Positions 24,640 to 55,175 of a DNA stretch of 64,000 nucleotides are shown here, piece after piece (within the stretch, counting starts at the first letter, position 1; each line of letters opens with the position of its first letter). The DNA comes from Candidatus Doudnabacteria bacterium (lineage in GTDB: Bacteria > Patescibacteriota > Doudnabacteria > UBA920 > O2-02-FULL-48-8): positions 26,047 through 90,046 of the forward strand of contig JAIFWV010000002.1 in NCBI GenBank assembly GCA_019659055.1, written 5' to 3'. The notes beneath the pieces were generated by a model that was not told where the DNA came from, ran no database searches, and was given only the letters and a program-made list of their open reading frames with translations. A program made the position numbers and the translations under genes.

Positions 24640-24683
24640 TCGATTTCGGTTTCTATGATTTTGCATTTTTTGTCCCGTACAAA

Positions 24684-24747
24684 TGGTGCCGCTGGTCGGA
24701 ATCGAACCGACATGGCCGTAAGGCCACACGATTTTGAGTCGTGCGTG
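24684..24747 (-). pseudogene. partial duplicate of tRNA-Leu(CAA): 3' 64 nt only (anticodon arm to CCA), no matching 5' half
   Basis: 64-nt segment identical to the corresponding part of the full tRNA-Leu 88 nt away; upstream sequence cannot pair as acceptor stem. Confidence 0.6.
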
Positions 24748-24771
24748 CCCCGCACCAGCAATCTATACAAA

Positions 24772-24858
24772 TGGTGCCGCTGGTCGGAATCGAACCGACA
24801 TGGCCGTAAGGCCACACGATTTTGAGTCGTGCGTGTCTGCCAGTTCCACCACAGCGGC
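24772..24858 (-). tRNA. tRNA-Leu (anticodon CAA), type II with long variable arm
   Basis: acceptor GCCGCTG/CAGCGGC, anticodon stem CACGA/TCGTG with loop CUCAAAA, variable arm TGGCCTTACGGCCAT, T-arm GTCGG-TTCGATT-CCGAC, A73, encoded CCA. Confidence 0.8.
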
Positions 24859-25494: not shown

Positions 25495-25566
25495 ACCACT
25501 TCGAGCGATTAGCGAGAAGTCTAGGTGTTAAATACCGAGATCTCTCACGTTCGTTCGAGATGGGCT
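25495..25566. repeat. 72-nt conserved intergenic element, copy 1 (ends 8 nt upstream of PAP2 ATG)
   Basis: ~93% identical to 32179-32248; contains GAGATCTC palindrome and terminal complementary arms CCACTTCGAG / TTCGAGATGG. Confidence 0.7.
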
Positions 25567-25571
25567 TAATG

Positions 25572-32178: not shown

Positions 32179-32248
32179 ACCACTTCGAGCGATTAGCGAG
32201 AAGTCTGGGTGTTATTACCGAGATCTCTCACGTCCGTTCGAGATGGGG
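32179..32248. repeat. 72-nt conserved intergenic element, copy 2 (ends 8 nt upstream of tatD ATG)
   Basis: see copy 1; identical placement relative to start codon. Confidence 0.7.
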
Positions 32249-33685
32249 TTATTCAATTTTCTGAAACAATGGTTCGGGTTTCTTGATGTCGCCGGATTCA
32301 ATAATCTTTCGGATTTTGTTGGCAGTATCCGGCATCACGGGTGCAAGCTTCCCCGCAATATCATAAAGCAACCCAGTAAGGTTTAAGAGCAGCTCCTTCA
32401 CTTTTTCAGGTTCAGTCTTTACCAATTCCCATGGTTTGGCCTTATCAATCAACTGATTGGCCCAGGCAATTTCTTCCCAGATTTTCACCAGGCCTTCAGA
32501 AAAATTGAGAGTACTAAATGCATCCCAGGCTGCCGATAGATCTTTGGGTGAAACCGCAAAGTCGGCAACATCACCATCAAGATATTTTTCGATCATATTA
32601 GTTGTGCGCGAGAAAAGATTGCCGAGACCATTGGCCAAATCGCCGTTGTAGCGGATCTTGAGTTTTTCTTCCGAGACATCGCCGTCTTGGCCAAACGGCA
32701 CTTCCCGCAATAGAAAATACCGGACCGCGTCGGCGCCGTATTTGGCCACCCAATCGTTGGGATCGATAACGTTACCGATAGTCTTGCTGATTTTTTGGCC
32801 GCCAATGGTAAAAAATCCATGCGCAAAAATCGCGTGCGGTAATGGTAAATCCACGGCCAGCAACAACGCCGGCCAAATTATGCAATGAAATTTGATAATG
32901 TCTTTGGCCATGACCTGAATATCGGCCGGCCAGTAGTTGCGGAACTTTTCTTCGTCTTCTCCAAAACCAATTATCGAACAGTAATTAAACAATGCTTCGA
33001 CCCAGACGTAAACGGTTTGTTCCGGATCCCACGGCAAAGGGATTCCCCATTTGACGTTTGGCCTGGAAATAGCAATATCTTCCAAACCTTGTTTGATAAA
33101 CGACAACACTTCGTTTTGTCTCGTGTACGGCCGAATCCGGAATTCATCCGTCTCAATCCGTTCTTTGAGTATGTCGCCGTATTCCGAGAGTTTAAAGAAC
33201 CAATTTTTTTCCTTGATTAATTCAGGCTTGGTCTTATGATCCGGGCACACGCCGTCCACTAAATCTGATTCTTTGATAAATGCCTCGTGACCTACGCAAT
33301 AGAGTCCTTCGTATTCGCCTTCGTAAATCTTCCCCGAATCTTTGAGCATGGTGAGAAATTTCGCCACGGCTTGCTTGTGCCGCGGCTCTGTGGTGCGGAT
33401 AAAGTCATCTGAGCTGATATCGAGCTGGTCCCAAGCAAAAGAGAATTTAGCGGAGATTTCATCAACAAATTCTTGCGGGGTCTGTTTGGCTTTCTCCGCG
33501 GCTTGGGCGATTTTTGCCCCATGCTCGTCGGTCCCTGTTTGGAAAAACACATCCTCGCCCAAAAGCCGATGCAGGCGGGCCACCACATCTGCGGCAATGG
33601 TCGTATAAGCATGACCAATATGCGGTTTATCGTTTACATAATAAATCGGGGTGGTGATATAAAATTTTTGACGAACTGTGTCCAT
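32249..33685 (-). CDS. metG: methionyl-tRNA synthetase (short form)
   Basis: PIYYVNDKPHIGHAYTT (HIGH), KISKTIGN (KMSKS-like), MetRS anticodon-binding region. Confidence 0.92.
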   Translation of the reverse strand: MDTVRQKFYITTPIYYVNDKPHIGHAYTTIAADVVARLHRLLGEDVFFQTGTDEHGAKIAQAAEKAKQTPQEFVDEISAKFSFAWDQLDISSDDFIRTTEPRHKQAVAKFLTMLKDSGKIYEGEYEGLYCVGHEAFIKESDLVDGVCPDHKTKPELIKEKNWFFKLSEYGDILKERIETDEFRIRPYTRQNEVLSFIKQGLEDIAISRPNVKWGIPLPWDPEQTVYVWVEALFNYCSIIGFGEDEEKFRNYWPADIQVMAKDIIKFHCIIWPALLLAVDLPLPHAIFAHGFFTIGGQKISKTIGNVIDPNDWVAKYGADAVRYFLLREVPFGQDGDVSEEKLKIRYNGDLANGLGNLFSRTTNMIEKYLDGDVADFAVSPKDLSAAWDAFSTLNFSEGLVKIWEEIAWANQLIDKAKPWELVKTEPEKVKELLLNLTGLLYDIAGKLAPVMPDTANKIRKIIESGDIKKPEPLFQKIE

Positions 33686-35242: not shown

Positions 35243-35553
35243 AGCTAAATTCTAAAGAATTGCTAGCGAATAAGCAATAGCTTAGAAGCTGGGAAGCTGG
35301 AATCTAGAATCTAGGAATAAACCAGGCTGCGGCCTGGTTTTGGTTTTCCCGACACTCGGAAAAATTTTGTCGGAATTTCAATCGAGCATATGTCCCATTG
35401 CGAGGAGTCCCGCCTACCACAAAAAAATTAATAGCCGGGGTGGGACGACGCGGCAATCTTTTTTAAGAGAGCTCGCCACGCGGCCTACTAGATTTAAGCT
35501 TAAGCAAACGGCCGCTCGCGATGGACAGATATATTCAGGATGACGGCGCATGG

Positions 35554-35580
35554 AACACCCGACACCCCGTCCCGGGTGTT
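35554..35580. repeat. 27-nt hairpin repeat AACACCCG-R-GACGGGGT-S-TCGGGTGTT (copy, reverse orientation)
   Basis: identical (as reverse complement) to 55131-55157; just downstream of nfo stop. Confidence 0.6.
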
Positions 35581-35591
35581 CAAGGATAGCC

Positions 35592-41744: not shown

Positions 41745-44087
41745 ATGAAAAATGAAAACTCTCCTACAATCCTAGCGGTTTTTGGCGCAACCGGCGATCT
41801 CGTATCGCGCAAACTTTTGCCGGCCATCTATCATCTTTACCGAAACAAACAGCTCCCGAACAAATTTAAAGTCATAGGTGTTGCCCGCCGTCCGTTTTCC
41901 GACGACGAATTTCGCAAGCTTATGAAAAAAGCGCTGGTGGCCAAAATCCGCCGGCCCGAGAAACTCGACGAATTTCTCAAACTCTTCAGCTATCATCAGG
42001 GCCAGTTTGATCAAGACGCAACATACACCTCGCTGAAAAAAGTATTAAATGCTCAGGATACCAAATGGAAAACTCGGGCCAATAAACTTTTTTACCTGGC
42101 CACACCCCCTAATTTCTATGATAATCTCCTACACAAACTTGCCGGCACGGGACTAGCCAAGCAAACCGGAAAAACCTGGGCGCGGATCATTGTCGAGAAA
42201 CCTTTTGGCAAAGACCTAGACCACGCCGAACATCTCGATGTGCTTTTGGGCAAACTATTCGACGAATCGCAAGTCTATCGCATCGACCATTACCTGGCCA
42301 AAGAAGTTTTGCAAAACATCATGGCGTTTCGGTTTGCCAACAATCTTCTGGAAGACGTCTGGAACCGCAAGTACGTGGAAAAGATTGAAATCAAACTCCT
42401 GGAAGAAATCGATGTCGAAGGCCGCGGGGAATTCTATGACGGCGTGGGCGCTCTGCTCGATGTCGGCCAAAACCACCTCCTCCAGGAATTGGCGCTCGTG
42501 ACCATGGATAAACCCGAAAGTTTCCGCACGGTCGATATCCATGCCCGCCGCGCCGAAATCCTGAAAAATCTGCGGCTCATGAATGCTGAGACTGTAAAGA
42601 GTGATACTATGCGCGCACAATACACAGGTTACACGCGGGAACCAGGGGTGGCCCGAAATTCCAACACGGAAACTTATTTCAAGCTTGAGACTTATATCGA
42701 CAACCCTCGCTGGCAAGATGTCCCGATCTACCTGGAAGCGGGAAAAAAATTCCCGGCCAACGAAAAATCAGTCACGGTGACATTCAAGCATCCCGAGCCA
42801 TGCTTGTGCCCACCCGGTGTACATTACCAAAACCGAGTTATCTTCCGCATCCAGCCCACCCCGGGAATCGAAATCGAATTTTGGAGCAAGAAACCCAACT
42901 CCTCGGGCATGGAACTCGAGAAACGCCTTTTGCACTTCAACTACGAATCCGACCCAAGCACGAGATATTTGGCCGAATACGCCAAGCTCATCTCCGACAG
43001 TCTCGCCGGAGATCAGACTTTGTTTGTCTCAAGCCGCGAAGCGATTTCATCGTGGAGATTTATAGACCCGATCGTTAAGGCGTGGAAAGCCAAACTCACT
43101 CCGTTACTCACGTATAAAAAAGATTTTAAAATCCTGTCCGAATTTGATCGACGAATCCGGCCTCAGCGGCCATTTACGAAATTGGCCATGGTCGGCTTGG
43201 GTAAGATGGGCAAGAGCCTCTCGCTGCAACTTTTGGAAAAAGGATTTTCGCTTGTAGCGGCCAATACTCATTCCAAAGACGCGGTGAGCGAACTCTCGCG
43301 CCACTCAAACTTCCACGCTTACCCAACCGACCAGCAAATGCTGGCCAGTCTCCCTAAGCCCCGGCTGGTCTGGCTCATGGTCCCGCACGCGCAAGTCGAT
43401 GAAGTTTTATTTGGCAAAGACGGGTTGGCCAAAATCCTCGACCGCGGCGATATCGTCATCGACTCGGGGAATTCATATTTCAAAGACACTATACGCCGGG
43501 GACGCCTGCTTACGCGCCGCGGCATCGAATTTATGGACCTCGGCTTTTCTGGTGGACCGGGAGGCGCGCGCCGCGGCGGCTGTCTCATGATCGGCGGCAA
43601 AAAATCTCTCTACCAAAAACTCGAGCATGTCTTTGCGAGTATGGCGGCTGACGGCGCCTATAATTATTTCGGCAAGATCGGCGCCGGCCATTTCGTGAAG
43701 ATGGTCCACAACGGCATCGAATACGGCATGATGCAATCGCTGGCGGAAGGCTTTGGCATCCTCAAAGCGTCTCCGTTTCGCCTCAATCTCATCGACGTTG
43801 CGGATATCTATAACCACGGCAGTGTTATAGAGTCGCGGCTCGTGGGCTGGCTTAAGGATGGATTTGAGATGCGCGGCCAAAACCTTAAGGGCATTACCGG
43901 GGTGGTGGGCTACACCGGCGAAGGCGAATGGACTGCCAAGACTGCCAAACAGCTCCGCGTGCCGGCCAAAATTATCGAAGAATCATTTCTCTTCCGGGTG
44001 AAATCAAAAAAGACACAAAGTTTCGTGAGTAAACTTGTGTCATCTATGCGCGAACAATTCGGAGGCCACAGTGTGCGCTCGGTTTGA
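41745..44087 (+). CDS. zwf: bifunctional fusion: glucose-6-phosphate dehydrogenase (N-terminal ~480 aa) + 6-phosphogluconate dehydrogenase, short NAD(P)-binding form (C-terminal ~290 aa)
   Basis: single 780-aa ORF; G6PD motifs VFGATGDL, RIDHYLAKE, EKPFG; after WRFIDPIVKAW a ~30-aa linker then 6PGDH motifs MVGLGKMG, GxAGxGHFVKMVHNGIEYGMMQ. Confidence 0.8.
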   Translation: MKNENSPTILAVFGATGDLVSRKLLPAIYHLYRNKQLPNKFKVIGVARRPFSDDEFRKLMKKALVAKIRRPEKLDEFLKLFSYHQGQFDQDATYTSLKKVLNAQDTKWKTRANKLFYLATPPNFYDNLLHKLAGTGLAKQTGKTWARIIVEKPFGKDLDHAEHLDVLLGKLFDESQVYRIDHYLAKEVLQNIMAFRFANNLLEDVWNRKYVEKIEIKLLEEIDVEGRGEFYDGVGALLDVGQNHLLQELALVTMDKPESFRTVDIHARRAEILKNLRLMNAETVKSDTMRAQYTGYTREPGVARNSNTETYFKLETYIDNPRWQDVPIYLEAGKKFPANEKSVTVTFKHPEPCLCPPGVHYQNRVIFRIQPTPGIEIEFWSKKPNSSGMELEKRLLHFNYESDPSTRYLAEYAKLISDSLAGDQTLFVSSREAISSWRFIDPIVKAWKAKLTPLLTYKKDFKILSEFDRRIRPQRPFTKLAMVGLGKMGKSLSLQLLEKGFSLVAANTHSKDAVSELSRHSNFHAYPTDQQMLASLPKPRLVWLMVPHAQVDEVLFGKDGLAKILDRGDIVIDSGNSYFKDTIRRGRLLTRRGIEFMDLGFSGGPGGARRGGCLMIGGKKSLYQKLEHVFASMAADGAYNYFGKIGAGHFVKMVHNGIEYGMMQSLAEGFGILKASPFRLNLIDVADIYNHGSVIESRLVGWLKDGFEMRGQNLKGITGVVGYTGEGEWTAKTAKQLRVPAKIIEESFLFRVKSKKTQSFVSKLVSSMREQFGGHSVRSV

Positions 44088-44472: not shown

Positions 44473-45183
44473 CTACAGCCTTTCGAGAGCTTCCTCGAAG
44501 CGATCGCGAGGCGCATCGTAATTTTTTAATTTTCTGCGCTTGCCCATAAAGAAAGCAATGCAGACAAACGATACGGCGAGCGCAAAATCGAATGCCGTGT
44601 CGCCGTTGCCGAACACGGCTCGAGCAAGACCCCAAACGACCTTCCCGCCATCCAAGACAAAAATCGGAAGGATGTTCAATTTGCCGAGCCGGTAATTCAT
44701 GTACGCCACGAATTGAATCGTGTTCTCGGTCACCGATTCGTCGAGCAGTGACACCACACCCATCGCAATGAGTGAAATGGCAAAGTTCGTAAACGGTCCA
44801 GCCAGGGACACGGCGATCATCGCTAGTGGTCTCCCCTGAACGTAGGCGTCAGGCAAACTCACGTAAGCACCCCACCACGAGATGCCGGCACCAGTGATCT
44901 GGTAGTTGAAGTAGTACGCTGTGATCGCGTGTCCGATTTCGTGGGCAGCGATGGAAATCACCATGAGTACCGCGCCAACCAGCGAACCCGTCACCAGCGC
45001 CGAAGTGCTGCAGTTGAGTTTTCGGCGCAGGGAATAAAGCTGGCGGTGGATATACGAATGGGCGCTCATCGTAAGCAGCACTGCCATCGCCACGGTCCAG
45101 AAGCTGATGTACACCGGGATTCCAAACACCTGCGTCCCGTACCCAAACGATGCGAGAACTTCTCCCATCTGCATGAGATTCAT
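44473..45183 (-). CDS. second peptidase-M50/site-2-protease-like membrane metalloprotease (G+C-rich, SD-bearing)
   Basis: AAHEIGHAITA HExxH in TM helix, NILPIFVLDGGKV motif; SD TAGGAGGAG before ATG. Confidence 0.7.
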   Translation of the reverse strand: MNLMQMGEVLASFGYGTQVFGIPVYISFWTVAMAVLLTMSAHSYIHRQLYSLRRKLNCSTSALVTGSLVGAVLMVISIAAHEIGHAITAYYFNYQITGAGISWWGAYVSLPDAYVQGRPLAMIAVSLAGPFTNFAISLIAMGVVSLLDESVTENTIQFVAYMNYRLGKLNILPIFVLDGGKVVWGLARAVFGNGDTAFDFALAVSFVCIAFFMGKRRKLKNYDAPRDRFEEALERL

Positions 45184-45431
45184 TTACTTCTCCTCCTAAA
45201 CAGCCTCCGAACCTTTCAGAGACTCATTTAAACCAACAATGATTATTATGGGCTTAAAAAGAAATGGGTTAAGCAATTTTTCATGTATTCAGAATAGATT
45301 ACCAATGGTTAATTATACTCCTTTTTCGGGATTTTGTCAATACTTACGCTCCTTGGGCAAAAAAAACAGGACCGCACCTAGTATGGGCGGTCCTTCCTAA
45401 ATATCTTCGGGGCTGTAAAACCCCAGAAGGT

Positions 45432-46022
45432 CTACTGAATGAACTTTTTGCCGATCGAAGCGTTGGGTACGATTCCGCGGTCTACGAGCTGCTTGGCAGC
45501 ACGCGGACTTTGTGTCCGTAGCCATTTCTCGTACAACCGAAGCAGATCCGTGCTCGTGGTTACTCCCGTGCGTTCACTGATGTCCGCAAGGACGTCTGTA
45601 TAACAAACGAACTTGCGGGAGAGTTCTGCAAAAACATCTGAAAACGCATCGACCTCGTGCCGACTCAACGAACCATAGGCATACTCGCCCATGGAAACGT
45701 AGTAGTCCACGTCTATAGACCTACGCCTCAAACTGTCCGAGAAGAAGCCTGAGACAAACAGCGAAAAATCACCGAGACTGCGGAGCAGTGCTCTTTGCTC
45801 GGGCCCGTTGCTGTTGATGGCAGTGGTAAGCCGTACAGCCAGAGGAAGATTGTGTCCGGCGTACGGGCCGGAAGCGTCCGGCCGCACGAAAGCGCAAAGC
45901 AAATTCACCAGGTAATACCCCGTAAACTCGCTGGCACTCACATGCTGGCGAGCAAGAGCGCTTTCCACCAAGTCCTTGAAGTACTCGGCGGGTGCCTGAT
46001 TACGAATAGGAATCAGATCCAT
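45432..46022 (-). CDS. hypothetical protein (197 aa), G+C-rich
   Basis: SD AGGAGG 6 nt before ATG at 46022; preceded by TTGACA-17-TACGAT and ArsR-site palindrome; terminator AGGACCGC..GCGGTCCT + T8 at 45375-45410. Confidence 0.5.
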   Translation of the reverse strand: MDLIPIRNQAPAEYFKDLVESALARQHVSASEFTGYYLVNLLCAFVRPDASGPYAGHNLPLAVRLTTAINSNGPEQRALLRSLGDFSLFVSGFFSDSLRRRSIDVDYYVSMGEYAYGSLSRHEVDAFSDVFAELSRKFVCYTDVLADISERTGVTTSTDLLRLYEKWLRTQSPRAAKQLVDRGIVPNASIGKKFIQ

Positions 46023-46094
46023 GCTTTTCCTCCTGGAAAACATTGTTGACCGAATCGTAGCAATATAAAAATATGGTGTCAAAAACCTTATAGG

Positions 46095-46112
46095 CTAATT
46101 CGTGCGAATTAG
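46095..46112. promoter_or_regulatory. 18-bp palindrome CTAATTCGTGCGAATTAG (copy 1), putative ArsR-like operator upstream of 45432..46022
   Basis: perfect 8-bp arms; three copies in window, all in promoter regions flanking the ArsR gene or nearby operon. Confidence 0.5.
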
Positions 46113-46366
46113 ACCAATGTCAGACAGTGCTTTATGGCTGGGTGAAGGGCGTTCAAACAATAAAAAACAGACAAACCCCTCTGGTCGCGATCGATAATTT
46201 CTGAAGTACGCAATACAGCAAGATGCCTGGATGTGGCTCGGAAAGACAGGTGCAAATACGCAGCAATGTCGGTGACGCTTGCCTCTCTGTGCTGTTTGAG
46301 ATATTTGATTATCAAAAGCCTCCTCCTGTTTGCCAGTGCCTTATATATTTTCTCCAAATCTTTCAT
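46109..46366 (-). CDS. ArsR/SmtB-family HTH transcriptional regulator
   Basis: 85 aa; LANRRRLLIIKYL..ASVTDIAAYLHLSFRATSRHLAVLRTSEII winged-HTH of ArsR family; no CVC metal motif. Confidence 0.75.
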   Translation of the reverse strand: MKDLEKIYKALANRRRLLIIKYLKQHREASVTDIAAYLHLSFRATSRHLAVLRTSEIIDRDQRGLSVFYCLNALHPAIKHCLTLV

Positions 46367-46368
46367 AG

Positions 46369-46386
46369 GCTAATTCGTGCGAATAA
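46369..46386. promoter_or_regulatory. palindrome copy 2 (CTAATTCGTGCGAATAAG, 1 mismatch) abutting ArsR-like gene start: putative autoregulatory operator
   Basis: starts 3 nt after the ArsR ATG on the opposite strand. Confidence 0.5.
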
Positions 46387-46398
46387 GTCTTAGACTAT

Positions 46399-48528
46399 CT
46401 ATAAAGCGCCGATCTCGAGAGTCTTGTCATGTTTGTTGGCGCGTACAAGATCTTTGAGATTCAATCCCATTGAGCGGAAAATATTCATATTGAGAATCGG
46501 GAAGCGCTTACCTTGGCTTATGAGCGAAACAGTCTGCCCATCCTGGACTATGCTCCCGTCTGGATGCGCCCGATCAATGCTGTCAATTACTGCGCCAGTG
46601 TCGACGATGGTTAGATCATTTTTTACTAAATTAGAAAACTTATATCCCAAACCAAGGAAAACCTTGTCAGATACAAATCCATATTTTTTGGCTTTGTACA
46701 CCAGGTACACGGTGCGGCCATCATTTGAATCCAAGACCAACGATCCATCCTGGAAAGTATTTGCCCCGAGAACCTTACCTGGATTTTCTGTCACAGGCAA
46801 GATAGTTACTGCTGGCGAACCGCCGCCGCCGGAAGGCGCTGGAGTTGGTTCTGGATCGGGTTTGGGAGCTGGAACTATATGTTCAGGATTCTCGGGAGTG
46901 AATAATTGGTCAACGCTCCCGTCCCCATCATAATCGGCAGCCATTTCGGTCAGGCCATCGGCCAGAATTATAGATCCCTGGAATTTTTCGGTCACCGGAA
47001 TATTTTCATAAATTTGAAAAAGCTGGGCATCTGATCCGCTCACATCATATTCTTTAAAAGTAAAATTACCTTCTCCTGTGCCTTGCAGTTTAACGGTATA
47101 TGTTTGGCCTTGATCCTGTGGGACGTACACATATTTATGGTCACCAAAAATTTCCATATCCGATCCAGGAATACCGTTCTCGACGCTCCCATTCTCTGCT
47201 AGACCTGTCCGATGTCCCTCGGCATCCGTTACCTCGATATTGACAGGACTAAGTATGTGCCACCACTTACCTTTCAAATCACAGACTTTTTGATTCTCAT
47301 TAAAAGCATCCTCGTCGAGCACGGCATTGCCGGTATCCAGTTGGCTCCCAGAAATGAGGTTTACTATATGCTGGCGGATGCCATCTGCGGACAAAAGCTG
47401 GCCGTGGCTGGTTTTGAGCGCCCAATATAAATGATTGGCTGGCACAATAATGCCGCCGGAGCTATCTGTCGGTACAGTGCCGTCCCCGGTGATCAATTTG
47501 GGAAAATCAAAAGCCGGTTCAGAAAATTTACTAATCGTTTCTGTAATACCACCCAATGTGGCCGTAGCACAGCCATTGATCGTGTACAGGTCAGCATATG
47601 TTTTGTAGGGTACCGAAAAAGAATCGAGAGTCCCATGGTAAACTTCACTGGCGGCCAACGCTTTGTCATTAATCAAATTTAGTTTTTTAAATTCAGCAAT
47701 TGCCTGGTCATAAGTTGGCTGGCTATCCACTTCCTCAGGTGTACTCGCAAGCGGGTTATGGATCTTGAGAAATGATCCCTCGTAATAATTCCGGGTTGGT
47801 GCAAGATCGTAAAGAACCGGCATATTCTGGGCCAGCTTTTTCATTTCCTTGGGATTTAATCCCGGCACATCGAAATTATCGCCCTCGATAATGACTTTGT
47901 AGGCTTTGGGTGCTCCCGAGTTGGGAACTCCAACCATAACCGTCTTTCCCAGTTTGCTATTGAGTTTATTTGTATATAGGTATTGCTTTACTAGAAGACC
48001 TCCGGTGGAGTGAGCGACGATATTTACCTTGCCAGCCGCCTTGCCACTTTCGGTCTGAGTAAGAATGTAATCTATCTGGCCTTGGAAAGCATTGAGATTT
48101 ACCAAATTACCTTCGGCATCCACACCCGAAATCCCATATCTCCAATCATATGGAAACGTAAATAGATCTTGACCCTCTAGATATCCCTGCTTCACAAACT
48201 CATTTATAAGACCATCAGTGTAATCAAGACCGTGTCCAAGGAATGTTGTTTTTCTAATTACTTCGCTTGTTAAGATATCGTTGTCGGTAGGTTGAAGATC
48301 TTCACTAAACGACAATGGATCCATAAAACTATCGGGTAAAATAGTCATTTTGGAGTTAGCCCAGAGCAGGTCATCTCCTTTTTTTAAGTTTGTTCCTAGA
48401 ACACCCGGTACAATTAAGACTGGAGTTTTTAAACTGGTCATTGACCCTTGAGCTCGCGGGTACCAAAAAGGAGCTATCAAAAATATTATAATTCCAATCG
48501 TAAGAGATTTAAACCCAGTCAAAAACAT
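46399..48528 (-). CDS. secreted alpha/beta-hydrolase (lipase/esterase-like, GxSxG = AHSTGG) with large C-terminal beta-rich extension
   Basis: 709 aa; N-terminal signal/TM, VAHSTGGLLVKQYL nucleophile elbow, Pro/Gly-rich linker PTPAPSGGGGSP then extra domain. Confidence 0.65.
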   Translation of the reverse strand: MFLTGFKSLTIGIIIFLIAPFWYPRAQGSMTSLKTPVLIVPGVLGTNLKKGDDLLWANSKMTILPDSFMDPLSFSEDLQPTDNDILTSEVIRKTTFLGHGLDYTDGLINEFVKQGYLEGQDLFTFPYDWRYGISGVDAEGNLVNLNAFQGQIDYILTQTESGKAAGKVNIVAHSTGGLLVKQYLYTNKLNSKLGKTVMVGVPNSGAPKAYKVIIEGDNFDVPGLNPKEMKKLAQNMPVLYDLAPTRNYYEGSFLKIHNPLASTPEEVDSQPTYDQAIAEFKKLNLINDKALAASEVYHGTLDSFSVPYKTYADLYTINGCATATLGGITETISKFSEPAFDFPKLITGDGTVPTDSSGGIIVPANHLYWALKTSHGQLLSADGIRQHIVNLISGSQLDTGNAVLDEDAFNENQKVCDLKGKWWHILSPVNIEVTDAEGHRTGLAENGSVENGIPGSDMEIFGDHKYVYVPQDQGQTYTVKLQGTGEGNFTFKEYDVSGSDAQLFQIYENIPVTEKFQGSIILADGLTEMAADYDGDGSVDQLFTPENPEHIVPAPKPDPEPTPAPSGGGGSPAVTILPVTENPGKVLGANTFQDGSLVLDSNDGRTVYLVYKAKKYGFVSDKVFLGLGYKFSNLVKNDLTIVDTGAVIDSIDRAHPDGSIVQDGQTVSLISQGKRFPILNMNIFRSMGLNLKDLVRANKHDKTLEIGAL

Positions 48529-48532
48529 AAAT

Positions 48533-48829
48533 TTAGAGAATAAAATCGGCGCGAACCCATGAATAAGCTAAATAAAAGTATATTGATAACAAAATGATCA
48601 GAAATAAAGAAAGTGCTTGCCAAAAATATCTAATTTTTATATTTTCGGAATTACGAGATCCAAAGAAAATAAGCGCGCTGAAAATTATAGCGACTATAAT
48701 CAACCCAAGTTTAATAGCATTTCCATAGCCCGAAATTCCGGCACCTGCATGAGGGTAAACGTAGTTATATACCGGTATCAGCGCGAGTGCTAAAACAGCG
48801 ATAAGCATCAAGTATAAATTCTTTTTCAT
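48533..48829 (-). CDS. small membrane protein (98 aa)
   Basis: three TM helices; promoter TTGACAAACGTAAGCAAT..TATTTT upstream. Confidence 0.5.
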   Translation of the reverse strand: MKKNLYLMLIAVLALALIPVYNYVYPHAGAGISGYGNAIKLGLIIVAIIFSALIFFGSRNSENIKIRYFWQALSLFLIILLSIYFYLAYSWVRADFIL

Positions 48830-48924
48830 ATTTGTATTTTAATTAATTGCAAAATATACCTATTGCTTACGTTTGTCAAACTTTCAAGAAATTTAAAAAA
48901 ATAGCCTTGACTATTATCGTAAGG

Positions 48925-49254
48925 CTAGCCGATGCGGTTTCTAATTGCTATAGCCATATAAATTAACAATAGACAATTGAAGCTTAATAAAAAAATAAAC
49001 CAACGGAACCACTTTACTCCAACGAAGTAAGCTTTCATATTATTTGCAATAAAGATCAGCCCAATCAGCTGGATGACCAAAACCACAAACGTCATCAAAA
49101 TATGCCCACTATCAGTAATTCGATTGACCCTTAACAAATTATGGTTTGGATTTAGTAACTGATAATCATAACTTGAAACAGGGCCCCAGATAAGCTCGGG
49201 TATCAAAAACATCGCTAAGCCTATTGCAAACCAGATCTTTTGTTTTGTTGTCAT
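48925..49254 (-). CDS. small membrane protein (109 aa)
   Basis: three TM helices; ArsR-site palindrome copy 3 and TTGACAAGCCTGAGCAAT motif upstream. Confidence 0.5.
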   Translation of the reverse strand: MTTKQKIWFAIGLAMFLIPELIWGPVSSYDYQLLNPNHNLLRVNRITDSGHILMTFVVLVIQLIGLIFIANNMKAYFVGVKWFRWFIFLLSFNCLLLIYMAIAIRNRIG

Positions 49255-49321
49255 ACGTTAATTTAATTGATTATAAAGTAATAGCGATTGCTCAGGCTTG
49301 TCAAATTTTTAGTCTTATAGG

Positions 49322-49339
49322 CTAATTCGTGCGAATTAG
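49322..49339. promoter_or_regulatory. palindrome copy 3 (extended AGGCTAATTCGTGCGAATTAGCCT)
   Basis: 11-bp arms; upstream of -35 of the 48925..49254 promoter. Confidence 0.5.
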
Positions 49340-49363
49340 CCTCAGATTAAGCGCGGGTAGTTT

Positions 49364-49849
49364 TTAGAAAAGTTTTATCAAGAAGTATATGAACATAGTG
49401 GTGCCGATGAGGAGTTTGAACAACGAACCTATGACCAGGCCGAGCATGGAGGCCCATGCGACTTTGAGCGCATGTTCCCTGGAGGCGTTGTTCAGAATCT
49501 CCCCGATGTAGGCTCCCACAAACGGTCCAAACAATATCCCGAGCGGGCCGAGAAAAAATATTCCGGCGAATCCTCCAATGGTAGCCCCAAGTATTCCAAA
49601 TCGCGAGGCCTTGCCGCCGCCAGCGGCCATAATAGCTGGTGCAAACAGATCCACAAGCATCGTAAGCCCGATGAGAATTCCAAATACCACAAGACCCCAA
49701 ACGCCCACATAGGCAAAATGCGTGTACCAAGCAAAGAGCAGGAGCCCCAGCCACGCCACAGGCAATCCGGGAAGGAGCGGCAACACGGCCCCGAGAGTGC
49801 CCATGATTATGAGAAAACCAGAGATTAGATTGATAGCAAGGTTATTCAT
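49364..49849 (-). CDS. DUF456-like membrane protein
   Basis: 161 aa, four TM helices, Gly-rich GxxxG packing motifs. Confidence 0.5.
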   Translation of the reverse strand: MNNLAINLISGFLIIMGTLGAVLPLLPGLPVAWLGLLLFAWYTHFAYVGVWGLVVFGILIGLTMLVDLFAPAIMAAGGGKASRFGILGATIGGFAGIFFLGPLGILFGPFVGAYIGEILNNASREHALKVAWASMLGLVIGSLFKLLIGTTMFIYFLIKLF

Positions 49850-49914
49850 AAGTTTAGTTTAGCAATAAAAAAAGGCGAGTGCATAGTAACACTCGCCCTA
49901 GTACTTGCCGACAC

Positions 49915-50397
49915 CTAGAAGTAGACGGAACCGATGAGGATCGCGATGGTCACCATGAGGCGGCCAGCTGTGACCAGGACTCCCTGAGGAGCCTGTGTCT
50001 TGATGGGATCGGAGATGTCTTCGTCTTCGGGAGGAATCTCGACCACCTGCCGCGAGATGAAAGCCATGAACCATGAGCGATCCTCGTTGTTGAGGCGATC
50101 CCACTCGATCCAGCACAGACGCACGCTTTCGCTCTTGATCATGAGCATCTCGGCTATGTGCGGCTGAATCTTTCTAGCCACAAGGATATCTCGGATTTCC
50201 TGAGCCCGGATGGGCCGCTGGGCTGCTGCGTACGCTGCGACCAACATGAGACATCCATCGTCCTCATCTGAATGCGCGTTGTTATTGATCCACTGCCCCA
50301 CCAGGATCCGGTCTCCGCGCGACACGATGCCCTCGTACACGGAGCGACGCAATTCCGGCGGAATCTCTTGCGTGAATGTGCGCAACAAGTTCTGCAT
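49915..50397 (-). CDS. hypothetical protein with C-terminal TM helix (160 aa), G+C-rich
   Basis: SD CAGGAGG 4 nt before ATG at 50397 (track start 50439 unsupported by SD). Confidence 0.45.
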   Translation of the reverse strand: MQNLLRTFTQEIPPELRRSVYEGIVSRGDRILVGQWINNNAHSDEDDGCLMLVAAYAAAQRPIRAQEIRDILVARKIQPHIAEMLMIKSESVRLCWIEWDRLNNEDRSWFMAFISRQVVEIPPEDEDISDPIKTQAPQGVLVTAGRLMVTIAILIGSVYF

Positions 50398-55062: not shown

Positions 55063-55130
55063 ATATTTTCTCCTGTTAATTTAACTTTAAACTAGACCCA
55101 TTGCTAAGGCTTGTCAATTAGGCAAAATTA

Positions 55131-55157
55131 AACACCCGGGACGGGGTGTCGGGTGTT
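55131..55157. repeat. 27-nt hairpin repeat copy
   Basis: between methyltransferase stop and 54760..55062 promoter. Confidence 0.6.
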
Positions 55158-55175
55158 CCTTCTTAGGAAATATAG

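Follow-up and report, generated by a model that had tools for sequence, protein, structure and literature searches.

Within a 64,000-nucleotide stretch of contig JAIFWV010000002.1 from Candidatus Doudnabacteria bacterium (assembly GCA_019659055.1; this whole 64-kb stretch is referred to as the window), a near-palindromic repeat present in three copies accompanies the gene for a minimal winged-helix protein of the ArsR/SmtB family with a length of only 85 amino acids (aa). We found that the association of gene and repeat extends far beyond this locus. Both are conserved across the Patescibacteria or candidate phyla radiation (CPR), the gene is mostly bracketed by two copies of the repeat, and in many relatives the upstream copy overlaps the promoter of the regulator gene. 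The account that we favor, with a probability of about 0.6, is that of a repressor and its operators, some of which may act as roadblocks to transcription.

In the window, the 18-mer CTAATTCGTGCGAATTAG occurs on the forward strand exactly at 46095-46112 (copy 1) and 49322-49339 (copy 3) and with one mismatch at 46370-46387 (copy 2), while the reverse strand of the site matches with two mismatches. Chance expectation for such matches is 0.02, and six strand-matches were reached in none of 100 shuffles. The copies, originally described as three perfect 18-bp palindromes with the second at 46369, are therefore real, but copy 2 lies at 46370 and the symmetry is that of an 8-2-8 inverted repeat, which is not a perfect palindrome because its centre, TG, is not self-complementary. 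In copy 3 the symmetry is extended to 10-2-10 (GGCTAATTCG TG CGAATTAGCC). A longer direct-repeat unit, ATAGGCTAATTCGTGCGAAT[T/A]AG, is common to all three copies and begins at 46090, 46365 and 49317, and copies 1 and 3 have 26 identical bases in common (CTTATAGG...TTAG). No further copy was found in the 64-kb window, even when ATTCGNNCGAAT was searched with one mismatch.

The predicted positions of the copies relative to the genes, with copy 2 at the ArsR start codon and copies 1 and 3 upstream of promoters, were borne out. The 18-mer of copy 2 is located 3 bp from the ATG of the ArsR-type gene at 46366, with the longer unit overlapping the AT of the start codon, and it sits 11 bp past the stop codon of a lipase-like gene, between a TATAGA -10-like box and the ArsR ATG. 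Copy 1 includes the TAA stop codon of the ArsR-type gene at 46109-46111 on the reverse strand and therefore the gene is exactly bracketed by copies 2 and 1. Copy 1 also lies 12 bp upstream of the -35 element of the next promoter. Copy 3 is found 25 bp past the stop codon of a DUF456 gene and 17 bp upstream of a TTGACA box (49304..49299). Copies 2 and 1 are the conserved upstream (U) and downstream (D) sites of the regulator gene bracket, and copy 3 is one dispersed site.

The 85-aa protein is a member of the ArsR/SmtB family by both fold and sequence. It scores above the curated thresholds of Pfam HTH_5 (36.7 bits, threshold 22) and NCBIfam NF033788 (64.6 bits, threshold 55), and its AlphaFold2 model has a predicted local distance difference test score (pLDDT) of 88.7 and the canonical alpha1-alpha2-alpha3-alphaR-wing-alpha5 topology, with helices at residues 2-11, 14-26, 31-38, 42-54 and 76-84 and strands at 58-63 and 66-71. 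Foldseek matched the model to CzrA, CadC, HlyU, NolR, PagR, SqrR and SmtB with TM scores of 0.78-0.87, and PagR and HlyU are closest by sequence. The recognition helix reads LSFRATSRHL in the window and is nearly invariant as LSF[RK]STS[RK]HL in family alignments, which parallels the invariance of the half-sites. As the original prediction had stated, the metal-binding cysteine motif is missing: there is no CXC in the window regulator. Nor do the family alignments contain conserved metal or thiol ligands; Cys70, Cys81, His75 and His80 of the window protein are not conserved, and the sole invariant histidine of the family (H48) falls in the recognition helix. Hence we conclude that the protein is outside the metal- and persulfide-sensing subclasses. 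Column 64 in the wing (L in the RGL of the window protein) covaries weakly with half-site base -7, a covariation not corrected for kinship, such that leucine pairs with TAATTCG and serine with TCATTCG or TTATTCG. No record encoding an identical copy of the window protein was found. A link of the ArsR-type protein to defence systems was considered and dropped, as PADLOC gave generic helix-turn-helix similarity to Csa3/CasR only.

Genes in the loci from other genomes were taken from our own crude open reading frame (ORF) calls. Homologues of the ArsR-type protein of the window were detected with phmmer in 23 of the loci found through the motif. In all 19 motif-found loci with the closest homologues of the regulator, a site is located 18-90 bp upstream of the start codon, usually with a second one at or just after the stop codon. 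As these loci had been selected by the motif, the pairing was retested in loci selected by the protein alone. For this sample, 80 metagenome loci were drawn from a protein-pattern scan, and a site was defined as TAATTCGNNCGAATTA with up to three mismatches within 160 bp. A site was present upstream of the ArsR-like gene in 62 of 75 loci and downstream in 65 of 76; both flanks carried a site in 51 of 71 loci and neither flank in 4 of 71. Sites were enriched near the ArsR-like gene about 36-fold over the rest of the 80 loci. On three contigs to which the protein had led us, the gene is likewise flanked by sites. In about 26 of the protein-only loci the ArsR-like gene ends with the TAA of the site, just as in the window.

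The upstream site is closely tied to the regulator promoter. In many loci a -10-like hexamer begins 18-21 bp away from the centre of the site, so that with a 17-bp spacer a -35 element (TTCGCA) falls exactly on this centre. Other loci have TAGAAT at +8 followed by the ATG 6 nucleotides later, which is a leaderless arrangement. Either the -35 or the -10 of the ArsR promoter is inside the site in many relatives. Examined as a candidate ArsR-type operator, the 10-2-10 site stands no more than 160 bp upstream in the 62 of 75 loci given above, with promoter elements inside or abutting it. Since the upstream site commonly overlaps the ArsR promoter, negative autoregulation is the best-supported step of the mechanism that we propose. 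We also considered the outer flank TATAAG as a -10 element with a -35 in the core and rejected it; this would require TAGGCT, a poor sequence, as the -35, and beyond the window copies there are TTGACA boxes of their own.

We propose that the repeat is the cognate site of this minimal 85-86-aa ArsR/SmtB-fold protein and that the protein very probably binds it. The site core consists of two ATTC/GAAT half-sites in a 10-2-10 palindrome, GGCTAATTCG-NN-CGAATTAGCC, the kind of geometry that an ArsR-type homodimer, or two dimers together, should recognise. At the 5' site (copy 2 in the window) the protein would repress its own gene. That the palindrome is the site of the adjacent regulator and copy 2 serves autoregulation had been suggested before, and we consider the former very probable and the latter probable from the arrangement in the 19 motif-found loci and in most of the 80 protein-found loci. 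The same protein would bind the 3' site and some 5-15 further sites per genome, among them copy 3, and there the sites would most likely act as promoter-proximal operators or as roadblocks between cistrons. In the window, copy 1 may gate the following 196-aa gene, and copy 3 may control the string of membrane-protein, hydrolase and ArsR genes by promoter-proximal binding or as a roadblock.

The genes that recur as partners of the ArsR-like gene are those for a cysteine-rich family of about 600 aa (16 loci), LCAT-like hydrolases together with small membrane proteins, NUDIX proteins, an ExoX-like exonuclease and DUF456 proteins. Homologues of the LCAT-like hydrolase adjoin the ArsR-like gene or a site in CPR loci L119, L040, L114 and L099, and a DUF456 gene directly follows the ArsR-like gene in L120/L121. 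That genes for the hydrolase, for small membrane proteins and for DUF456 turn up again next to the regulator in other lineages lends some comparative support to the proposed targets in the window. The lipase-like hydrolase and membrane proteins that had been named as targets thus reappear beside regulator or site (L119, L040/L114, L099). The cysteine-rich proteins contain many CxxC pairs and a C-terminal ...YCEQCY and have no Pfam or NCBIfam model, and their gene is the commonest one directly downstream of the ArsR-like gene. Examples are found in L035 (1161-2942), L038 (151-5687, three tandem paralogues), L095 (5355-6932) and L159 (2378-4240), and copies of the palindrome occur in the gaps of 5-50 bp between such paralogues.

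The distribution of the site was assessed by a scan for the 20-mer GGCTAATTCGTGCGAATWAG in bacterial and archaeal genomes, with each species represented by one genome; about two chance matches are expected for this pattern. The exact 20-mer was present in more than 118 genome stretches among the matches listed, and all but one of these came from metagenome-assembled genomes (MAGs) of Patescibacteria/CPR or from MAGs of an unclassified "bacterium". The CPR groups comprise Giovannoni-, Jorgensen-, Kaiser-, Wolfe-, Nomura-, Taylor-, Sung-, Harrison-, Lipton- and Doudnabacteria and MAGs labelled Saccharibacteria; some of these labels are automatic, notably "uncultured Candidatus Saccharibacteria". 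Single MAGs carry at least 4-12 exact copies on different contigs, all per-genome counts being lower bounds. Over all lineages the invariant part is ATTC-N4-GAAT, mostly ATTCG-NN-CGAAT, with CG, TA or TG/CA at the centre. The two central bases are free and therefore the orientation of the site is not fixed. The one non-CPR match among those listed, in Pseudoalteromonas sp. P1-25 (L089, 7135-7154), is the centre of a bidirectional terminator, AAAAAAGC...GCTTTTTT, between convergent genes and fits the expected two chance matches. A phage origin of the palindrome was dismissed because viral contigs contained no exact copies.

A number of observations weigh against the repressor/operator account. 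The link between gene and site rests on co-localisation, as read from the sequences, and in the window the centres of copies 1 and 3 are near -57 and -62, upstream of the -35 elements and without overlap. Sites are all-or-none, unlike the graded sites of ordinary regulons: of the sites in 849 kb, 107 were exact, 29 differed at one position and 10 at two, no site differed at three positions, and 11 did so at four or five. In favor of the account, 119 of the 139 exact copies (86%) are intergenic, in DNA of which about 87% codes for protein. The sites away from the ArsR-like gene have no preference for intergenic regions that contain promoters. They are split 68/17/18 among co-directional, convergent and divergent regions, against 60-64/19-20/21-23 expected from the same loci (p = 0.3-0.8), and several of the sites in convergent regions lie between two canonical terminators. 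The target genes are a mixed set of housekeeping genes that do not share a theme; neighbours include purD, DinB, dUTPase, an ECF sigma factor, SpoU, PolA, DnaE, TGT, QueA and the 3' end of trmD. About 12-15 copies, roughly 10% of the sites, are inside real genes. Finally, the flanks beyond the 22-bp core are variable and yet complementary from arm to arm at each site, more so than a consensus specific to each genome would account for, a feature not anticipated by a simple operator model.

The downstream copy of the bracket also often cannot be a promoter operator, because the next gene is convergent (12 of 72 loci) or starts less than 35 bp from the site (31 of 60 loci, an approximate count owing to crude start calls). 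Speaking for the account, outward-facing promoter hexamers within 30 bp of a site are much commoner than inward-facing ones (11 vs 0 for TTGACA and 18 vs 4 for TATAAT), an enrichment that may simply reflect where a 34-bp palindrome fits. An SOS-like regulon, which neighbours such as DinB, DnaE, PolA, dUTPase and alkylation-repair genes might have indicated, was dropped: tRNA-modification and other housekeeping genes are equally frequent, and placement is at background. In four MAGs a copy is located 10-15 bp past the stop codon of trmD (...NEWKLKRKK*; L013 140-159, L050 267-286, L058 1312-1331 and L115 3090-3109). The gene on the other side of this copy differs among the four MAGs and is convergent in L115. 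Two readings offer themselves, a tie of the site to the trmD 3' end or rearrangements with their breakpoints in the site.

The copies inside ORFs translate as ANSHELA or ANSCELA, with an identical reading frame whichever strand of the palindrome is read, and are found in the genes for Fmt, a class I/II aminotransferase, TatD, a class V aminotransferase, RNase HII, MnmA, UvrC and a YggS-like protein. Exact copies with this translation are those in fmt (L047 3279-3298 and L090 2978-2997) and tatD (L002 1112-1131 and L100 1550-1569) and further ones at L030 7024-7043, L112 2550-2569, L101 6258-6277, L051 2350-2369 and 5243-5262 and L029 7281-7300. In MiaA the copies read LFARIS and are always of the GAATAAG variant, the one change that removes an in-frame TAA stop. 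They occupy the same mid-gene position in at least four lineages and are devoid of palindromic flanks (L007 2616-2635, L073 819-838, L076 2075-2094, L009 2547-2566 and L063 7747-7766). Retention of this site in lineages whose MiaA proteins have otherwise diverged indicates that the DNA motif is under selection within the coding sequence.

It is possible, though we lean clearly against it, that the palindromes constitute a DNA-element system of the whole superphylum with a main role other than promoter control. About ten invariant, hairpin-capable palindromes per chromosome would then, with protein bound, insulate or act as roadblocks, or they would organise the chromosome, and their symmetry would be kept or extended by arm-to-arm conversion or copy-paste strongly enough for them to enter housekeeping ORFs.

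We regard it as unlikely that the winged helix-turn-helix protein marks some ten palindromes per chromosome for segregation, compaction or insulation, in the manner of parS/ParB, KorB OB, matS/MatP or NBS/Noc, with autoregulation as a side effect and most sites lacking a role at promoters. The near-perfect, all-or-none sites with their conservation over class-level lineages, their placement independent of the type of intergenic region (including convergent spacers that lack promoters and are flanked by terminators) and their retention in ORFs, as with the stop-avoiding variant in miaA, would all fit such chromosome-architecture sites. So would the site at or in the gene of the binder itself, an arrangement also seen with parS and parB. 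The parS site is a 16-bp palindrome that is conserved across phyla and often intragenic, and TubR is a centromere binder with an ArsR-like fold. On the other hand, in our neighbour survey the ArsR-like gene was accompanied by neither a partner NTPase such as ParA or TubZ nor another conserved neighbour, the protein is a bare 85-aa winged helix-turn-helix with no spreading or bridging domain, and 86% of the sites avoid coding DNA.

A further explanation is that of a self-propagating or conversion-driven dispersed repeat capable of forming hairpins in single-stranded DNA or cruciforms, similar to repetitive extragenic palindromic (REP) sequences and REPINs or to Rickettsia palindromic elements (RPEs). 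Most copies would be neutral or selfish, and the ArsR-like gene would encode the binder of the repeat, comparable to a REP-flanked gene for a REP-associated tyrosine transposase (RAYT). Of 139 sites, 90 remain perfectly palindromic for at least 5 bp past the 8-2-8 core, the longest extension being 14 bp, and when right arms were shuffled within genomes the observed symmetry was reached in 0 of 2000 trials. In one genome (JAUSFV) the whole 36-bp palindromes fall into two sub-families, and none combines an arm of one with an arm of the other. Template switching on a hairpin, a function of cruciform or single-stranded DNA or copy-paste spread could each explain this coupling of the arms at variable flank positions. 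The bracketing of the gene by two copies in nearly all loci, the copies in loops and linkers of ORFs (the Pfam match of RNase HII is interrupted by the site, and in MnmA and UvrC the copy falls in a linker) and the differing synteny beside the sites in related genomes (at the trmD 3' end and in the window compared with L119) are likewise in line with a mobile repeat. Nevertheless we judge it quite unlikely. REPs are species-specific, but this core does not vary between lineages; the product of the bracketed gene is neither a nuclease nor a transposase; and the copies in Fmt, TatD and aminotransferase genes take the place of native residues and leave the length unchanged. Furthermore, orthologous sites are kept between related genomes (L040/L114, L009/L063 and L047/L090) and copies are absent from the viral contigs. 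A generic genome-wide repeat had been named from the outset as the finding that would speak against a regulon, and the outcome is divided: the sites do occur irrespective of promoters, but MAGs with at least 4-12 exact copies, about 10 per genome, fall short of the tens to hundreds of such a repeat. Neither the neighbours of the ArsR-like gene nor 90 neighbouring proteins, judged by their top 25 Pfam families, included an integrase. When read as 8-6-8, the site centre differs between sites of one locus, which does not agree with an attC or tyrosine-recombinase core.

An element at the RNA level, i.e. an mRNA hairpin acting as terminator, 3'-end stabiliser or RNase III site, is highly improbable. 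Many sites do lie 8-40 bp past a stop codon or in short intercistronic gaps, the covariation of the flanks preserves pairing, and the hairpin of copy 3 has a calculated energy of -14 to -15 kcal/mol. Copy 2, however, folds weakly on the sense strand (-3.2 kcal/mol), the window copies are not followed by a U-tract, and none of the terminator-like calls in the window coincides with a copy. No bias of G.U over A.C was seen on the sense strand (G.T 9 vs A.C 7), at least 23 flanks already have a canonical terminator that ends 9-66 nucleotides before the site, and 18 sites lie between divergent genes. In addition, it is the exact sequence and not structure alone that is conserved across lineages, and Rfam gave no match to the palindrome at E <= 1 in window positions 45000-50000, where the only match was a chance suhB-like one elsewhere.

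The compact regulon of three operators confined to this 3.3-kb locus and organism, as originally envisaged, has next to no likelihood, for although the three copies are clustered in 3.3 kb with none elsewhere in the 64-kb window and the lipase and membrane-protein neighbours recur, the strict form of this idea is refuted by the 20-mer in more than 118 CPR genome stretches, several times per genome, on different contigs, beside unrelated genes, with placement at background and in part within ORFs.

The features of the locus are compiled in Table 1. All genes are on the reverse strand, in the order DUF456, copy 3, TTGACA (49304), 109-aa protein, 98-aa protein, 709-aa LCAT-like hydrolase, copy 2, ArsR-type protein, copy 1, TTGACA-17-TACGAT and 196-aa protein. 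The TTGACA at 49304..49299 precedes the gene for the 109-aa protein, and a full promoter was not called there by the promoter scan. A homologue of the 196-aa protein is present in L119, but away from the regulator. We rejected the reading of the region as a genomic island or cassette. The DNA between copies 1 and 3 has a GC content of 41.5%, lower than the 46.9% of the window, yet values as low are reached by 8% of 3.2-kb segments, and the relative L119 is without a site at the far end.

Table 1. Palindrome copies, genes and promoter at the regulator locus (window coordinates)
Feature	Position	Strand	Sequence	Remarks
196-aa protein, no family assigned	45432..46022	-		good Shine-Dalgarno sequence, 53.8% GC
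Sigma-70-like promoter of the 196-aa gene	46054..46082	-	TTGACA-17-TACGAT	TG-extended
Copy 1 (downstream, D site of bracket)	46090..46112		ATAGGCTAATTCGTGCGAATTAG	holds ArsR stop TAA
ArsR/SmtB-family winged-helix protein, minimal, 85 aa	46109..46366	-		no Shine-Dalgarno sequence before ATG
Copy 2 (upstream, U site of bracket)	46365..46387		ATAGGCTAATTCGTGCGAATAAG	one arm mismatch
709-aa LCAT-like alpha/beta hydrolase	46399..48528	-		N-terminal hydrophobic segment; Pfam LCAT 1.4e-17
98-aa small membrane protein	48533..48829	-		homologue upstream of lipase in L119
109-aa small membrane protein	48925..49254	-		homologues beside lipase in L040, L114 and L099
Copy 3	49317..49341		ATAGGCTAATTCGTGCGAATTAGCC	full 10-2-10 core
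DUF456 membrane protein	49364..49849	-		just upstream of copy 3

Several other repeats were observed in the window. A 42-nucleotide promoter-like element that reads TTGACAAGCCTNAGCAAT... on the reverse strand is present in three copies (48838-48879, 49263-49304 and 55076-55117), two of which are upstream of the two small membrane-protein genes and the third 6 kb off. A G+C-rich 32-nucleotide sequence, GGAACACCCGACACCCCGTCCCGGGTGTTCAA, occurs twice in inverted orientation with 97% complementarity (35552-35583 and 55128-55159), and its second copy adjoins the promoter-like element ending at 55117. Furthermore, there are two identical 70-nucleotide tRNA-like segments 88 nucleotides apart (24678-24747 and 24766-24835) and two pairs of 36-nucleotide repeats, 94-97% identical and 6.7 kb apart (25495-25568 and 32179-32251). 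A forward-strand ORF of 780 aa at 41745-44087 by eye resembles a glucose-6-phosphate dehydrogenase (N-terminal GATGDL...) fused to a 6-phosphogluconate-dehydrogenase-like NAD-binding half.

Patescibacteria are mostly uncultured and have tiny genomes with very few regulators, and to our knowledge the control of their transcription and chromosomes is still almost entirely uncharacterised. A pair of protein and site that can be found by a 20-mer search from Doudnabacteria to many groups of the Paceibacteria type therefore provides a directly testable entry point and offers a ready-made orthogonal repressor/operator. The in-ORF copies present a case of a DNA element that is kept intact in coding sequence under dual constraint. 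Should the sites turn out to be architectural or self-propagating and not operators, they would constitute a new kind of genome feature for the superphylum. Within the library of papers searched, we found none describing the sequence, a CPR ArsR regulon or the protein-site pair.

An ArsR-family autorepressor with a dyad operator is in itself an already known kind of system. ArsR/SmtB operators are typically 12-2-12 imperfect inverted repeats over the regulator's own promoter and mediate negative autoregulation. The protein described here has the fold and the Pfam/NCBIfam family in common with the autorepressors SmtB, CzrA and CadC and with the non-metal regulators PagR, HlyU, NolR, SdpR and BigR/SqrR, and its candidate dyad site likewise has a 2-bp centre and in many relatives overlaps the regulator's own promoter. 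It differs from them in being shorter (85-86 aa) and in having no conserved alpha3N, alpha5 or cysteine-pair sensor. Moreover, in contrast to these systems, the site is all-or-none and near-invariant over class-level lineages, two sites enclose the gene, the second of them containing its stop codon, and extra sites are independent of promoter context and in part located in ORFs. HrcA-CIRCE is similar in that a palindrome is conserved nearly base for base over distant lineages, with one conserved repressor and few sites per genome. CIRCE is a 9-N9-9 element found only at chaperone promoters and defines a coherent regulon, whereas the neighbours of the sites described here are heterogeneous and their context is not promoter-specific. 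With parS/ParB and KorB-OB our system has in common near-perfect palindromes across phyla, a handful of copies per replicon that are intergenic as well as within genes, and one copy at the gene of the binder; KorB sites are operators as well as promoter-distal sites. Unlike in parS/ParB, the candidate binder is not ParB-like and has neither a partner ATPase nor a conserved NTPase neighbour. REP/REPIN-RAYT systems and RPEs resemble it as dispersed extragenic palindromes with a gene flanked by copies and, as in RPEs, some copies in frame within ORFs. In contrast to REP/REPIN-RAYT, however, the flanked gene encodes an 85-aa ArsR-type winged helix-turn-helix protein and not an IS200/IS605-like HUH tyrosine transposase, copies number about ten (a lower bound) and not hundreds, and the core is common to groups of the Paceibacteria type and Doudnabacteria and not species-specific. 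What is new relative to all of these systems is the superphylum-wide invariance of the site, the bracket with the stop codon in its second site, the in-ORF copies and the arm-coupled palindromy.

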